From: a virus
IMG/VR virus record: IMGVR_UViG_3300005573_000004
Coordinates: 85,962-149,961 of that record
DNA: 64,000 nucleotides
Reading direction: 5' to 3' (one strand)
Shown here: positions 3 through 55,914 of the stretch, piece after piece
How the letters are laid out: each line of letters begins with the position of its first letter
Position numbering within the stretch: position 1 is the stretch's first letter
The notes under the pieces: model-generated
The model's database searches: none
The model's input: only the letters and a program-made list of their open reading frames with translations
Told to the model about the DNA's origin: nothing
Translations under genes and position numbers: made by a program

Positions 3-1334
3 GATTTAGATATATTAGTAGATGGTCCAGGAGATAATCCAGCTGTTGAATTTGCTTCTATTTTAGAACAGAATAACGTTGGAAAAAATGCAGTAACGTT
101 TGAAAAAGAAGTATCAGATATAGATCCAATGGCTGCAAAATTTGGCGTTGCTAAAATGATTATTGATGGTATTCCTGTAGAATTAGTTATGCCACGTGGA
201 GAAAAGTATAATCCTGATTCTAGAAAGCCTGAAGTTTTTAAAGCAGATATAAAACAGGATGCTTTAAGAAGAGATTTCACTATTAACACATTAATGTATG
301 ATCCTGCAACCAAGCAAGTATTAGATCCGACGGGACACGGTTTAGAAGATTTAAAAAACGATGTTATAAGATCTGCTAATCCTGATGTAGATACAGTTTT
401 CAAAGATGATCCATTAAGAATGCTTAGAGCTATCAGATTTATGATAACTAAAGATATGAAAATTGATCCAAATACTTTAGATGGTATTCGTAGGAATGTT
501 GATAGGCTTAATATAATTTCTAAAGAACGAATTGCTGATGAACTTAAAAAAATAATTTTAGCAGATAAACCCAGTAGGGCAATCAGGCTAATGAAAGACC
601 TTGGTCTTTTAAAATACATTATACCGGAGCTTGAAGATACAGAGAAAGTGATGGAAGTTTCTAAATATCATCTTGAGGAACCTACTTTTGAACATATTAT
701 GCGAACATTAGATAACATTCCTCCAGAAATAACTTCTAGATTAGCAGCTTTATTACATGATATTGGTAAACCATTGACAAGAACCATAGAAAAAGGAGTA
801 GTGCATTTTATAAATCATCACAATGTTGGTGCTGATATGGCTAGGAAGATATTACAAAGATTAAAATTTCCAAATGAAATGATAGAAGATGTTAGTAAAT
901 TGATCCAATATCATATGGTGCCTCATATGTATACTAGCGAACAAGGAGATAAATCATTAAGAAGATTCTTATTAGATATTGGTCATTTGATAGATTTCAT
1001 ATATGATTTAGCAGAAGCTGATAGAAAAGGTTCTGGAGTTAGAAATGAAGAAGCCGAAGCTAGATTTCAAGAATTTAAAGAAAGATTAGAAAAGTTAAGA
1101 CATCAACCTATTACGGTTGAACAGTTGAATAAACCTCTTATTGATGGGAATGAACTAATGGAAATGTTTAATAGTCCGCCTGGAAGGTGGATACGTGATG
1201 TACATAAAGCTCTTGTAGATTTGCAACTAGAAAATCCACAATTAACAAAGGACCAAGCCAAGACTTTTGTTGAGGAATATGTAAGATTAAAGCATCCCGA
1301 AATTTTTAAGAATAGACTCTTGACAGAACATTAG
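3..1334 (+). CDS. cca: CCA-adding tRNA nucleotidyltransferase / poly(A) polymerase family with HD domain (5'-truncated by window edge)
   Basis: The frame is open from nt 3 (DLDILV = catalytic DxD), upstream of the ORF-track start at 129. Contains DALRRDFTIN, DDPLRMLRAIRF, ISKERI and HD-domain LLHDIGK...H motifs. Confidence 0.9.
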   Translation, partial: DLDILVDGPGDNPAVEFASILEQNNVGKNAVTFEKEVSDIDPMAAKFGVAKMIIDGIPVELVMPRGEKYNPDSRKPEVFKADIKQDALRRDFTINTLMYDPATKQVLDPTGHGLEDLKNDVIRSANPDVDTVFKDDPLRMLRAIRFMITKDMKIDPNTLDGIRRNVDRLNIISKERIADELKKIILADKPSRAIRLMKDLGLLKYIIPELEDTEKVMEVSKYHLEEPTFEHIMRTLDNIPPEITSRLAALLHDIGKPLTRTIEKGVVHFINHHNVGADMARKILQRLKFPNEMIEDVSKLIQYHMVPHMYTSEQGDKSLRRFLLDIGHLIDFIYDLAEADRKGSGVRNEEAEARFQEFKERLEKLRHQPITVEQLNKPLIDGNELMEMFNSPPGRWIRDVHKALVDLQLENPQLTKDQAKTFVEEYVRLKHPEIFKNRLLTEH

Positions 1335-48454: not shown

Positions 48455-49642
48455 TTAGAATTTTGTTTTAGAACTAAAAAAGAACCCACTTAGTGAACTA
48501 CCTTGCCTAAAGACAGAGGCTTCAAGTGACGAAACAATAGGAGTTGGGTTGTCACTTAGGCTCGTTCCGAGCCTTAATATATTTAAAGCTGAATTAAAAT
48601 CTCTATCTAAGGAGCAGTTACAATGAGGACAATTATGAATACGAATATCAAGAGTTTTAGGAACTACTTTTCCACATTGGCTACAAATCTGAGATGTATC
48701 TTTGGCTGGAACTTTAACTATTGTTCTACCAGCTTCTGCCGCTTTATAGGACAAAATGTTAAAGAACTGAAACCAGGCTACATCTCTCATGCTCCTATTA
48801 AGATTTCTAAAACTTGTAAAAGCATTCATTTTTTCGTGACAAATAGTATCATAATTATCTACATAATATCTAGCAACTTTATGATGAAAATCAAGACGTT
48901 GATTAGCGACCTTCTCATGAACTTTACTCAAAAGCAATTTAGTTTGTTTGTATTTATTAGAACCTTTGACTTGTTTAGAAAGTTTCTGTTGAAGTTTTTT
49001 AATTTTCTCAAAAGATTTATTCAACCATCTTGGATTTTCAATCTTTTTTCCTTCACTATCTGTAAGAAAACTTTCACAACCTACATCTATTCCAATTGCT
49101 TTATTAACCTTTGGAAGAACTTTAGGAGTTATATTATCACAAACAAAACTAATATACCATTTTCCAGTACTAGTTCTGCGGATAGTAACTGTTTTGATTT
49201 TGGCCTCTTTAGGAATTTGTCTATGAAACCTAATTTTGAATATACCTATTTTAGGAATATTCAAAACAGAACCTTCCAAAGACCAACTTGCTTGTTTAAG
49301 AGTAAAGGAATCATATCTATTAGTTCCTTTAAACCTTGGAAATCCTGGATTTTCTCCTTTTTTGACTCTATTAAAAAAATTTTGATAAGCTCTATCAAGA
49401 CGTTCTATAACATCTTGGAGACTTTGAGAAGGAATTTGTTTAAATTCAGGATAATATTGTTTGAGTTCCGGAAGTTGTTTTATTTGATCAAATTTAGAAA
49501 TAGACTTCCTATGAAGCTTCCAAGCATTAATTCTTTGACTAAGACAAAGATTATATACTTGGCGACAAAGTTCCAAGACTTTATTAGCTTGGTCTTCTGT
49601 AGTCTTATTGATATAGGCTCTAAATTTGTATGTCTTTTTCAT
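48455..49642 (-). CDS. tnpB: TnpB RNA-guided endonuclease
   Basis: MKKTYKFR N-terminus, GFPRFK, RuvC D (GIDVG), E (HEKM) and D (DRDFNSA), CSQC/CPHC zinc finger. Confidence 0.95.
   Translation of the reverse strand: MKKTYKFRAYINKTTEDQANKVLELCRQVYNLCLSQRINAWKLHRKSISKFDQIKQLPELKQYYPEFKQIPSQSLQDVIERLDRAYQNFFNRVKKGENPGFPRFKGTNRYDSFTLKQASWSLEGSVLNIPKIGIFKIRFHRQIPKEAKIKTVTIRRTSTGKWYISFVCDNITPKVLPKVNKAIGIDVGCESFLTDSEGKKIENPRWLNKSFEKIKKLQQKLSKQVKGSNKYKQTKLLLSKVHEKVANQRLDFHHKVARYYVDNYDTICHEKMNAFTSFRNLNRSMRDVAWFQFFNILSYKAAEAGRTIVKVPAKDTSQICSQCGKVVPKTLDIRIHNCPHCNCSLDRDFNSALNILRLGTSLSDNPTPIVSSLEASVFRQGSSLSGFFFSSKTKF
48473..48640 (-). ncRNA. Predicted TnpB omegaRNA (reRNA); guide = flank TAAGTGGGTTCTTTTTTAGT
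   Basis: Inferred from established TnpB biology: scaffold overlaps the tnpB 3' end and right end. The 5' boundary is approximate. Confidence 0.55.
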
Positions 49643-53051: not shown

Positions 53052-53607
53052 GATGATTCACCTCCTCTTTATTTAAAATTATAACTTGTGTTGGGTCAAA
53101 TAGTGTTATATTTTTTGTATAGGATTGTTCAAAGGTAAATTTGAAATGTAGTTCTTTAACTTCTCTTTGGGTTAGAAGAGCTTCTATATCATCCTTTAAT
53201 TTCTTTATTCCGATTTCTTGATTAAGTGAATATGAAGCTATCCTTTCTGCATCGTTACTATACGTAATATCCAAATCCTTAATGATTTTGTGTAACAATA
53301 TTGGTTTATTAGTGATTACAACTTTAATTTCCATACGATAATCATATAGAATTTTAATTGCCTCTTTTAGATATTTTACTAATATATCAATCATATTTCT
53401 CATAGCAAATATTCTACTATATAAACTAGTTTCTGGATCAAATACTAAATCAACAGTCAGTCGCAATTGAGAAATAACATCAATATATTTGACATCAGCT
53501 TTCTTAAGTAAAGGAATTAGTGAATTGTAAAGTTTATTTTTAAGGCTTTTAATTGAGTCTAAATCAAATACATATCGCATCGGCATTATTTGGTTCATTT
53601 GTATCAC
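53041..53607 (-). CDS. Hypothetical protein, first gene of the FtsK operon
   Basis: AAGGAAGTG RBS region; overlaps the next gene. Confidence 0.6.
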   Translation of the reverse strand: MIQMNQIMPMRYVFDLDSIKSLKNKLYNSLIPLLKKADVKYIDVISQLRLTVDLVFDPETSLYSRIFAMRNMIDILVKYLKEAIKILYDYRMEIKVVITNKPILLHKIIKDLDITYSNDAERIASYSLNQEIGIKKLKDDIEALLTQREVKELHFKFTFEQSYTKNITLFDPTQVIILNKEEVNHHAS

Positions 53608-53671
53608 TTCCTTTCTAAATTCCCTACTATATCATACAATATAATATAGTAAAAATTAATTTTATTTTTTC

Positions 53672-54544
53672 TTAATCCATATCGTTTTCACTTCTAAATC
53701 CTAAGAATACCGGAAATCTTGGAGCTTCTTTTATCCCTGTTGGTTGATACTTATACTTGATGATCTTATTTAAAAACTGTTCTTTATTCTGCCAAATTAG
53801 ATTTCTAATGTTATCGCTTAATCCACTGCCAATTCCAAATTCTATATTAGTTTTTAAATCTCTCACGATTAAAGTTCCCAATGTTCCTGCTGGAACCATT
53901 CCAGATTTCGCTTGACTTCTTTTAGTATGTCCTAACGCATCTTTCTCTGCTTCATTTTCATTATGCATCTTTTCTTCAAAACCAATAATAATTGCTTCCG
54001 CATCTTCAAATCTTTTTAATTTTAAAAGATAACCTTCTTTAGTGGTTGATCTTCCTAATTTGTATGGTCCGTTTCCAGATCTAATCATAACTCCTTCGTA
54101 GCCTGAGGCTAAGCACTCTCTTTCATAGAGTAACAAATCCTCTACTTTATTTATTGTGACAGGTAAAACTTTAACTACAAAATCAGGTAATGATAATGCT
54201 TTTAGATCTTCCATTCTATCTTTATATGGTCGGTCTAACGAATCTTTAACATAATCAAATACATAATATTTAAACTCTGGATGACCTTCTTCACTCATTA
54301 CTTTGCTGGTAGTTTCCTGGAACGAACCGCTAGTCATAAGTTCACCATCCAACCCATCAGGAAGTTGACTAACAAGAGATCTAATATATTGGTTAGGTAT
54401 CTCTTTAAACTTCCTTGATAATACTTTTCCATCTAATTTAAGGCATCTAATTCCATCAAGTTTTGGAGTGCAATAAACTGGATATTGTAATTTGTTTACA
54501 TCCTCAACCTTTCCTGCTAACATCGGTTTACTGACATACTCCAT
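53672..54544 (-). CDS. lig: ATP-dependent DNA ligase (minimal, Chlorella-virus-like)
   Basis: KPMLA, TPKLDGIRC (adenylated Lys), LDGEL, YVFD, EGVMIR, LLKLK and PRFPVF motifs. Confidence 0.93.
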   Translation of the reverse strand: MEYVSKPMLAGKVEDVNKLQYPVYCTPKLDGIRCLKLDGKVLSRKFKEIPNQYIRSLVSQLPDGLDGELMTSGSFQETTSKVMSEEGHPEFKYYVFDYVKDSLDRPYKDRMEDLKALSLPDFVVKVLPVTINKVEDLLLYERECLASGYEGVMIRSGNGPYKLGRSTTKEGYLLKLKRFEDAEAIIIGFEEKMHNENEAEKDALGHTKRSQAKSGMVPAGTLGTLIVRDLKTNIEFGIGSGLSDNIRNLIWQNKEQFLNKIIKYKYQPTGIKEAPRFPVFLGFRSENDMD

Positions 54545-54796
54545 GGGCTAAAACACCGTGGGTTCTAAGGTCGGCACTCCTATTGCCGTTGCCTCTTTAG
54601 GGGTGTCAGTGCTCCCTTTGCACAAATCTCTATTATGTTTTATTTTATATGTTAATATCATTTACCTTTTTGCTCCTTATACTTTATTATACCATATATT
54701 AGATAACAAAGCAAGAAGAAAGTTGCGATTTATTTATTATGCCCAAAATTCATCCCACGCCTTAAAGGGACGGGGCTTTCTTTTTGGCAAAGCATT
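54531..54796 (-). mobile_element. 266-bp non-autonomous IS605-type element with internally deleted tnpB, inserted in codon 9 of the ligase
   Basis: TTAC|AATGC...AAAG-CCCCG hairpin (left end) and GAAC-CCACGG hairpin...TCAG (right end). Removal restores MSTMNTKITKPMLA from RBS+ATG 54822. Confidence 0.85.
54548..54661 (-). pseudogene. 37-aa tnpB remnant (N- and C-terminus fused)
   Basis: MILTYKIKHNRD-LCKGSTDTPKEAT...TLEPTVF, with a promoter TTGCTT-17-TATAAT at 54686-54714. Confidence 0.65.
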
Positions 54797-54912
54797 GTAA
54801 TTTTAGTATTCATTGTACTCATTCTCTTTTACCTCCTTCGTTTACTAATAAGTAAACTAATATAAACAACCACAAAAAAGTAATTAAAAGATAGAAAAAC
54901 ATGATACACCTC

Positions 54913-55374
54913 CTATTTAGCAGATAAAAGTTCCATAGCCGTAACTTCAAATATAACATCTTCTTTTTCTGCAAAATTAATTAAAAATTCTCCAACAGTC
55001 ATAAGCTTATAATCATTGGAAGTATTGCCTTTTTTATCCAGTTTTCTAACAGCAATTTTGTCATCGATTTTCCACGCAGAAATAAAGCTATAATGCGTTG
55101 GTGTAGCTAATGTAAGCACTACAGGAAGATCAGAATCGTACTTGTCATCTAATGCCTTAAGTCTATTTATGAAACCTTTAATTATATAATTTATACTTGA
55201 AATAGAAACCTTTCCAGCCGGAAAAACAATTACGATCTCTATATTGAATGGGTTTCTTTTAGAAATTTTAAATTTATCTATTCTACCTAAACCTTCTCCC
55301 TGATTCTTAAGCCAATTTATTATCTTGATAAACTCTTCTCTTTCCTCTTTTTTTATTTTTGTCATTTTTAGCAC
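54913..55374 (-). CDS. Hypothetical protein
   Basis: AAGGAG RBS; open frame. Confidence 0.55.
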   Translation of the reverse strand: MLKMTKIKKEEREEFIKIINWLKNQGEGLGRIDKFKISKRNPFNIEIVIVFPAGKVSISSINYIIKGFINRLKALDDKYDSDLPVVLTLATPTHYSFISAWKIDDKIAVRKLDKKGNTSNDYKLMTVGEFLINFAEKEDVIFEVTAMELLSAK

Positions 55375-55389
55375 GCTCCTTTCAATTGA

Positions 55390-55914
55390 TTATTCAGCTC
55401 CACATCGTGTTAAAAATTCTATCACATCATTATACTTTCTTCTAATAGCTACTGATAGAGCAGTTTCTCCTTCTTCATTTCTATCATTAATATGAGCTTT
55501 TGCATTAACTAACAATTTTACTATTTCAATATATCCATCACTACTAGCATATATTAACGCAGTATTTCCCCATTTATCTTTGATATTAACTTTTGCATTA
55601 GCATCAAGTAGCAACTTAACTATATTTGTATGCCCAAACTTACTAGCTTTAATCAAAGCAGTTTCACCTATGCCATCAATAAGATCAATATCTGCTCCAG
55701 CATCTATTAACAATTTTGCTATAGTATAGTTTCCCACTATGCAAGCTTCCATTAAAGCAGTTACTCCATATATATTTCTAGCATTAAGATTATTAGGTAA
55801 TGAATCAGCAGTTGTATAGCTCATACCTAATTTTTTTAAAGCCATTAGTCTAGAAAATTTGCTAGCAGTTTCATCATTTAATAGTTTCAATAAATCTTGC
55901 TGATATGGAGTCAT
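55390..55914 (-). CDS. Ankyrin-repeat protein 1 (no signal peptide)
   Basis: GxTAL..A...G...IVKLL..A.A..N repeats. Confidence 0.92.
   Translation of the reverse strand: MTPYQQDLLKLLNDETASKFSRLMALKKLGMSYTTADSLPNNLNARNIYGVTALMEACIVGNYTIAKLLIDAGADIDLIDGIGETALIKASKFGHTNIVKLLLDANAKVNIKDKWGNTALIYASSDGYIEIVKLLVNAKAHINDRNEEGETALSVAIRRKYNDVIEFLTRCGAE

Follow-up and report, generated by a model that had tools for sequence, protein, structure and literature searches.

The closest described counterpart of the element reported here is IS608, the 'peel and paste' insertion sequence of Helicobacter pylori. In IS608, the left cleavage site TTAC goes with the guide AAAG and the right cleavage site TCAA with the guide GAAT. 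Both guides are 4 nt long and lie 5' of the foot of a hairpin, the distance from site to foot is 19 nt on the left and 10 nt on the right, and the base pairs formed include A+16:T-3 and A+17:T-4 (PMC3201880, PMC5934647). From these facts it can be deduced that position 1 of a cleavage site pairs with position 2 of its guide, position 2 with position 1, and position 4 with position 4. The present analysis concerns a 266-bp element of this type found in a phage genome, where it splits the start of an ATP-dependent DNA ligase gene. The stretch of DNA analyzed, hereafter the window, comprises 64,000 nucleotides of the virus record IMGVR_UViG_3300005573_000004 (positions 85,962 to 149,961), and coordinates given without the name of a contig refer to it. 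In the reading favored here, which is considered quite probable, the remnant of a transposon sits in the ligase start and the reading frame has been rescued through an ATG that is private to this copy.

The likeness to IS608 covers several features. The element was inserted 3' of TTAC, has neither a target duplication nor terminal inverted repeats, and carries two subterminal hairpins, each with a guide of 4 nt on the 5' side of its foot. AAAG serves as the left guide in IS608 too, the right site also lies 10 nt from the hairpin foot, and in the full-length relatives tnpA and tnpB are likewise co-oriented and overlapping. The differences are a matched change at the right end (GAAC/TCAG here, GAAT/TCAA in IS608), a left site-to-foot distance of 21 nt in place of 19 nt, a compact TnpB of about 342 aa, the location of the copies on phage-like contigs, and a window copy that is devoid of genes. 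A second term of comparison is provided by the PATEs (palindrome-associated transposable elements), in which omega RNAs have often been retained and serve in trans (Meers et al., bioRxiv 10.1101/2023.03.14.532601). As in PATEs, both ends have been kept and the coding capacity has been lost, the right-end scaffold is largely preserved, and TnpA and TnpB would be needed in trans. Unlike them, the window element is present in a single copy inside a coding sequence and is not part of a repeat family; its scaffold is truncated at the 5' helix, and its terminal hairpin is mutated to a start codon. The kind of element, a PATE-like derivative of an IS608-type transposon, here on a phage, is already known.

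Insertion sequences are also able to drive neighboring genes through outward or hybrid promoters, or to create fusion starts. The present case is comparable in that the promoter and the Shine-Dalgarno (SD) sequence of the element point into the downstream gene, which would thereby stay open to expression. It differs in that the element also gives the start codon and five N-terminal residues, by means of a point mutation in a hairpin, and in that translation is probably coupled to the open reading frame (ORF) of the transposon remnant. As for the interrupted gene, its product resembles the ligase of Chlorella virus PBCV-1 (PDB 1p8l, 2q2t, 1fvi). Both are about 290-300 aa long with an adenylation and an OB domain, and their match (E 1.9e-70) aligns KITKPMLAGK with AITKPLLAA, from ITKP on (MAITKPLLAA with its first residue); here, however, the residues preceding KP are the transposon-derived MEYVS. 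Since PF01068 and PF14743 match above cut-offs from residue 7 on and the KxDG motif is present as KLDGIR, the gene is classed as a minimal ATP-dependent DNA ligase of the Chlorella-virus type. The locus is organized as follows:

54832..54838, minus strand: native ligase SD sequence AAGGAGG, read directly and the same in the empty-allele contigs L016-L019.
54822-54820, minus strand: native ligase ATG, read directly.
54730..54822, minus strand: stub ORF of 30 codons, made of the native ATG with 9 native codons (MSTMNTKIT), 21 codons from the transposon left end, and a stop.
54797..54800, minus strand: TTAC target and left cleavage site, the expected target-adjacent motif (TAM), outside the element; it precedes 7 independent left ends.
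54531..54796, minus strand: non-autonomous, PATE-like IS200/IS605-family element of 266 bp with tnpA deleted and tnpB internally deleted, delimited by the empty allele and by alignment to 13 other copies.
53672..54544, minus strand: present ATP-dependent DNA ligase ORF of 290 aa (MEYVS followed by KPMLAGK...), with the Pfam domains DNA_ligase_A_M and OB_2.

The insertion point falls at codon 9/10 of the ligase gene, where the native codons end in ...ATT AC; 3' of the insert (54796-54531, minus strand), the gene continues with T AAA CCG ATG TTA GCA. The ATG of the present ORF (54544-54542) belongs to the right-end hairpin; it begins 14 bases short of where the insert ends and 3 nt past the stop of a tnpB remnant. 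Reading across the junction swaps MSTMNTKIT for MEYVS immediately ahead of the first conserved ligase motif, KPMLA. A first-pass annotation, made from the letters of the window alone, had located the native signals, the insert, its promoter, its ORF and this ATG, and a direct reading agrees with it at every position.

The most direct evidence for this organization comes from an empty allele in sister phages. A search of the protein collection returned one ligase (P0001, 294 aa) that is 97% identical to the window ligase and begins with MSTMNTKITKPMLAGK, its N-terminus being the first 9 codons of the stub. P0001 is carried by four metagenome contigs (L016-L019) from four samples, and its neighbors are those of the window: a 153-aa gene upstream, and a 188-aa and a 201-aa gene downstream. 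When the two flanks of the window element are joined without a gap, 197 of 204 bases match these contigs. Both boundaries are therefore exact, and no target sequence was duplicated. The first-pass annotation had predicted that precise removal of the element would give the native N-terminus of the ligase and had proposed a search for the empty allele in related phages; the start of P0001 bears out the prediction, and the allele was found on the four syntenic contigs. Had the homologous ligases natively begun with MEYVSKP, with no empty site, the splitting of the gene would have been illusory; instead, the empty allele exists. The occupied allele was encountered a second time, in identical form, on a separate Logan assembly contig.

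The empty allele, in the part matching window positions 54800-54521, reads AAAATAAC up to the join and TAAACCAATG after it. Two synonymous differences distinguish it from the window flanks: TAAC instead of TTAC (ATT to ATA), and CCG to CCA at +7. Such an allele could not serve as a target for the present element, and a TnpB that depends on TTAC and carries this guide could not cut it. An interpretation as TAM escape was nevertheless rejected, since two differences in 20 nt, against a background of 3.4%, are not significant (about P 0.15).

The identity of the insert was established by comparison with its relatives, which were recovered with a 25-base right-end probe and then with the TnpB fragment to which this probe led. 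This gave 13 further copies, located on phage-like contigs with unrelated flanks. The left end of the window copy is 86-92% and its right end 84-94% identical to those of the relatives. TTAC directly precedes 7 independent left ends, and the right ends of the 13 copies all stop at TCAG, within a shared ...GAGTATGTCAG, after which the flanks are unrelated. Two occupied/empty pairs are available (the ligase site of the window and the site occupied in the contig L011, described below), and each joins without a gap. The full-length relatives, L020 and L021, encode a Y1 TnpA of 137 aa overlapping a TnpB of 331-343 aa. The TnpA of L020 (2591-3004) matches PF01797 (E 1.7e-41), and tnpA was also called in L021, L039, L040 and L042. 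The TnpB P0121 (about 342 aa) matches PF07282 (E 3.1e-25), its stop lying 22 nt before the right end. With the empty allele and the 13 relatives in support, the alignments identify the insert, as initially proposed, as a gene-less deletion derivative of an IS200/IS605-family (IS608-like) element. The element is single-copy in the phage genome of 149,961 bp, in which TnpA was not found, and blastn of the element against the cultured-phage and plasmid collections gave no match. Its components, from left to right end, are listed here:

54754..54779, minus strand: left guide AAAG (54779-54776) and left subterminal hairpin (54775-54754), whose stem is weakened by a private G-to-A at 54762.
54686..54714, minus strand: transposon promoter, with TTGCTT (54714-54709), 17 nt and TATAAT (54691-54686); TG at 54694-54693 makes a TGn extended -10.
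54548..54678, minus strand: SD sequence AAGGAG (54678-54673), originally that of tnpA, and 37-codon tnpB remnant ORF (54661-54548) with stop TAG, from alignment to relatives.
54624..54631, minus strand: AGAGATTT, microhomology at the junction of the internal tnpB deletion, repeated in L011 and in the full-length copies.
54531..54631, minus strand: conserved right-end block, an omega-RNA-like scaffold without the 5' arm of its first helix, from a 12-copy comparison.
54531..54565, minus strand: right guide GAAC (54565-54562), hairpin CCACGG/CCATGG (54561-54541), and 10 nt to the cleavage site TCAG (54534-54531), with private substitutions at 54553 (C-to-T) and 54544 (G-to-A).
54511..54530, minus strand: 20 nt past the right end, TAAACCGATGTTAGCAGGAA, which would serve as guide to an omega RNA formed by the right end, according to the TnpB mechanism described by Meers et al.

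The window copy shares one deletion with that of L011, in which tnpA was lost and its SD sequence became fused 11 nt before the ATG of tnpB. Judging from the alignment, a second deletion in the window copy arose between two AGAGATTT repeats, of which L011 and the full-length copies have one at tnpB codons 11-13 and the other ~100 nt short of the right end, and it removed nearly all of tnpB. The 37-codon ORF joins 13 N-terminal to 24 C-terminal tnpB codons and matches residues 310-341 of P0121, in agreement with its earlier description as a tnpB remnant. The element had also been credited with supplying the ligase with a replacement promoter and an in-frame ATG. Both are present, but the promoter is no peculiarity of this copy: by comparison with the relatives, in which they are conserved, promoter and SD sequence are the transposon's own tnpA signals. 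The homologous -10 box reads TATACT or TACAAT in the relatives. The internal promoter was not listed by a consensus promoter scan, because its -35 box matches at only 3 of 6 positions. That TATAAT might be a private 'up' mutation of TATACT was considered and rejected, as the A at position 5 is also present in L042 (TACAAT).

The pairing rule deduced from IS608 holds at both ends of the element, as had been noticed at first reading: AAAG predicts TT.C and the actual site is TTAC, while GAAC predicts TC.G and the actual site is TCAG. A natural test of this rule is offered by a sibling phage, L011 (IMGVR_UViG_3300029625_000023), which is 95-96% identical to the window at the DNA level over 12 kb, on both sides of its own element. 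The guide of that element is CAAG, which predicts TG.C, and the element sits after TTGAC, so that this pair also obeys the rule. The same site is empty in the window:

1321..1325, plus strand: empty site TGAC followed by A, with the join between 1324 and 1325, filled in L011 by a sister element of 672 bp.

The sibling phages consequently hold sister elements at different sites, the empty state is known for each, and the changed guide is accompanied by a changed target. The DNA and RNA folding of the ends and of the leader is no more stable than that of shuffled sequence (z -0.05 to -1.5). As this includes the DNA hairpins, the support for the guide rule rests on these comparisons and not on folding energy.

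The element of L011 (1732-2403) is itself chimeric. Its first ~70 nt, with the hairpin CCCTG...CAGGG and the guide CAAG, cannot be aligned with the left end of the family. Over the remainder, identity with the window copy amounts to 92-94%, and the tnpB of this element is broken into pieces of 66 and 128 aa.

The start codon of the present ligase ORF is the second distinctive trait of the window copy. At position 54544, a G is found in 13 of the 13 other copies and an A only in the window, the change being G to A. The 3' arm of the right hairpin reads CCATGG in the window only and CCGTGG in the others, except for CCGTAG in L011 and CCGCGG in L042. The ancestral GTG is in the frame of tnpB, 3 nt after the TAG, and in the window it is also in the frame of the ligase, which implies that the insertion arrived with a weak in-frame start. 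Among the copies compared, that of the window is the sole one inserted in-frame in a long ORF. It carries only 6 private substitutions in ~236 comparable positions (54762, 54738, 54704, 54605, 54553 and 54544). The G-to-A change breaks a C-G pair. Together with the private C-to-T at 54553, it brings the hairpin RNA to a predicted -7.2 kcal/mol, against -14.7 kcal/mol without the two changes, and the bases around the ATG are predicted to be unpaired with a probability of 0.41, up from 0.29. Because it provides a better start codon and at the same time loosens the hairpin in which this codon is buried, the G-to-A change looks like a compensatory mutation, fixed after insertion. Because it also damages the hairpin to which TnpA binds, the window copy is probably immobile.

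The terminal ATGTCAG of the right end holds a second ATG in another frame, at which gene callers start downstream ORFs such as L041 1882-2403 (173 aa, with an HNH-like motif) and L023 4055-4204 (49 aa). The right end was not retained as a general donor of starts: only 1 of the 12 other sites (L041) has a long ORF from ATGTCAG, and there the flank offers an ATG of its own 2 nt later.

On these grounds, the following course of events can be proposed. A tnpA-less, IS608-like element of related uncultured phages would have been pasted as single-stranded DNA 3' of TTAC, at codon 9/10 of the ligase gene; TnpA must then have come in trans, since the inserted element had none. After insertion, the native SD sequence and ATG would yield only the 30-residue stub. 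The gene would be transcribed by read-through from a phage promoter, from the extended -10 promoter of the transposon, or from both. The 37-codon tnpB remnant would be translated from the former SD sequence of tnpA, and ribosomes terminating at the TAG would re-initiate 3 nt on, at the ATG at 54544. This route of expression, deduced from the arrangement of the signals, appears reasonably probable. The replacement of MSTMNTKIT by MEYVS should be harmless, as the ligase homologs start with 1-8 variable residues ahead of KP(M/L)LA.

Whether a working ligase is still made has to be judged from the state of the gene. The ORF is intact, with no lesion over 290 codons, and it is the sole ligase gene, of either type, in a complete phage genome of 150 kb. 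The occupied and the empty allele differ by 36 synonymous and 7 non-synonymous changes, which corresponds to a dN/dS ratio of 0.043; this value spans the whole divergence of the two alleles and not the time since insertion, so that a recently dead gene would look alike. Past the last in-frame stop, 1 of ~700 possible single changes gives an in-frame ATG, and the chance of finding it among the six private substitutions is ~1%, although this argument was framed after the result was seen. These two reservations weigh against the favored reading, as do further points. No SD sequence precedes the ATG at 54544, so that initiation there would depend on coupling or on the structure of the leader. In the 37-codon ORF, the distance between the SD sequence and the ATG is long, at 11 nt. 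A single occupied lineage is known, and the ATG at 54544 could have been present before insertion, in the donor copy. Some of the same facts would be expected from a fresh knockout, in which the insertion inactivated the ligase, a host ligase substitutes for it, the ORF is still undecayed and the ATG is a neutral coincidence. Such a knockout would account for an ATG without an SD sequence and for an occupied allele confined to one lineage. It would also fit the low private divergence of the element (the 6 changes mentioned above) compared with a dS of 0.24 between the phage lineages, by which the insertion may be young. It would leave to chance, however, that an ATG-making change is found among only six private ones, in the only copy lying in-frame in a long ORF, and it would have deprived of its ligase a phage with no second one, in a gene whose 290 codons are free of lesions. 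A knockout is for these reasons judged unlikely. Far less credit is given to a ligase made only from those genomes from which a TnpA acting in trans has precisely excised the element. The excision of IS200/IS605 elements is indeed seamless and restores the donor joint, and removal would here restore the native frame exactly. On the other hand, the phage has no TnpA, both hairpins carry private changes that weaken their stems (54762 and 54544), and the element is present in the assembled genome as well as in the independent contig, all of which makes excision-dependent expression extremely improbable.

A role for the element as a source of guide RNA was the last of the proposals to be considered. 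In the 12 copies compared, the last ~115 nt are 93% identical, versus 83% for the upstream tnpB coding sequence. The consensus fold of the right end comprises five helices, of which helix 4 keeps its pairing through double changes at 4 of 5 pairs, with a covariation score reached by 0 of 500 shuffles. The right-end block of the family fits an omega-RNA scaffold on this comparative evidence. Helices 2-5 are preserved in the window copy, but helix 1 is without its 5' arm and the terminal hairpin is weakened. An Rfam search of 53500-55500, with E up to 10, gave only chance-level hits and no omega-RNA family. The phage encodes no TnpB of the mini element's family; the best matches to that family in the phage are two resident TnpBs, 26-28% identical, which were rejected as the cognate partner on the basis of this low identity and of ends that are not similar. 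The first-pass annotation had suggested that the ligase mRNA leader could double as an omega RNA with the ligase sequence as its guide. With the 5' arm of helix 1 lost and no cognate TnpB in the phage, this suggestion appears weak.

A broader version of the same idea is trans-acting homing, in which an omega RNA made of the right end and the initial 16-20 nt of ligase sequence would be loaded by a foreign cognate TnpB; it is regarded as very unlikely. The TnpB, supplied by a co-infecting phage or by the host, would cut empty alleles (TTAC followed by TAAACCGATG...), the occupied allele would spread by recombination, and ligase expression would be a mere side condition; little probability is attached to this cycle as well. 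The extra constraint on the right-end block, its covarying helix and the precedent of the PATEs, whose retained omega RNAs work in trans according to Meers et al., speak in favor of homing, as does the occurrence of intact family elements on other phage-like contigs. The sole known empty allele, with TAAC and a mismatch at +7, is also what escape from the TAM and the seed would give. These two differences are nonetheless those found above not to exceed the background, the scaffold of the window copy has suffered the deletion and the weakening just described, and the phage lacks both TnpA and a TnpB of the right family, its resident TnpBs being too distant. That the remnant is kept as a gene-drive cassette, with the private ATG as the price of a working ligase and the TAAC and +7 changes of the sister allele as escape mutations, is accordingly held to be quite improbable. 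The rescue of the ligase frame through the private ATG remains the favored explanation.

Some additional observations concern the relatives of the element and of the phage. In L039 (65-116) and L040 (40-91), a full-length element has 52 nt of right-end sequence, in inverted orientation, directly beside its left end, an arrangement that points to tail-to-head or nested insertions within the family. The right end shared by L042 and L043 combines CCGCGG with TAGGTCAG, and its tnpA was called at only 93 aa; this is a decaying copy, located beside dGTP diphosphohydrolase-like and nucleoside deoxyribosyltransferase-like genes. The closest named relatives of the TnpB family (P0121-P0240) are mostly archaeal (Thermoplasma, Methanomethylovorans, Bathyarchaeota and metagenome-assembled genomes (MAGs) of the Asgard group), with one Rhabdochlamydiaceae MAG, and its nearest copies (75-90% identical) are all on low-GC phage-like contigs. 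The two resident tnpB genes of the phage belong to another lineage; they are intact and near-identical (395 and 384 aa, MKKTYKFRAY...), and their sites are window 48455-49642, on the minus strand, and G000:C1 at about 50.6-51.8 kb (L012 1411-2565). In the sister contig L017, ~200 bp with a 78-aa ORF replaces the ~1.29 kb that carries tnpB in the window, between an FtsK-like and a sigma-like gene. The 3' end of the resident tnpB overlaps the start of the sigma-like ORF, which has 210 aa in the window and 184 aa in L017. An assignment of the host from cultured-phage matches was dropped, because the nearest ones are too distant (51% for the ligase, with cyanophage S-CRM01, and 34% for TnpB).

Two aspects of this locus deserve to be reported: a natural case of retargeting, in which guide and target have changed together and the empty state of both sites is available, and a private hairpin mutation that makes the start of a ligase. 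With sister elements and reciprocal empty sites, the two sibling phages amount to a clean experiment of nature on phage-borne single-strand transposons, and the CAAG/TGAC pair represents in the wild the IS608 retargeting rule that has so far been shown by engineering. The analysis also adds a phage-borne family of compact TnpBs (about 342 aa), whose ends are defined and whose target is TTAC; this family might be of practical interest. Finally, the window copy illustrates how a gene may survive a hit in its first codons, the weak in-frame start of the right end having been turned into an ATG by one transition that also loosened the hairpin. If expression of the ligase is confirmed, this would be a compact case of compensatory evolution that immobilizes the element at the same time.

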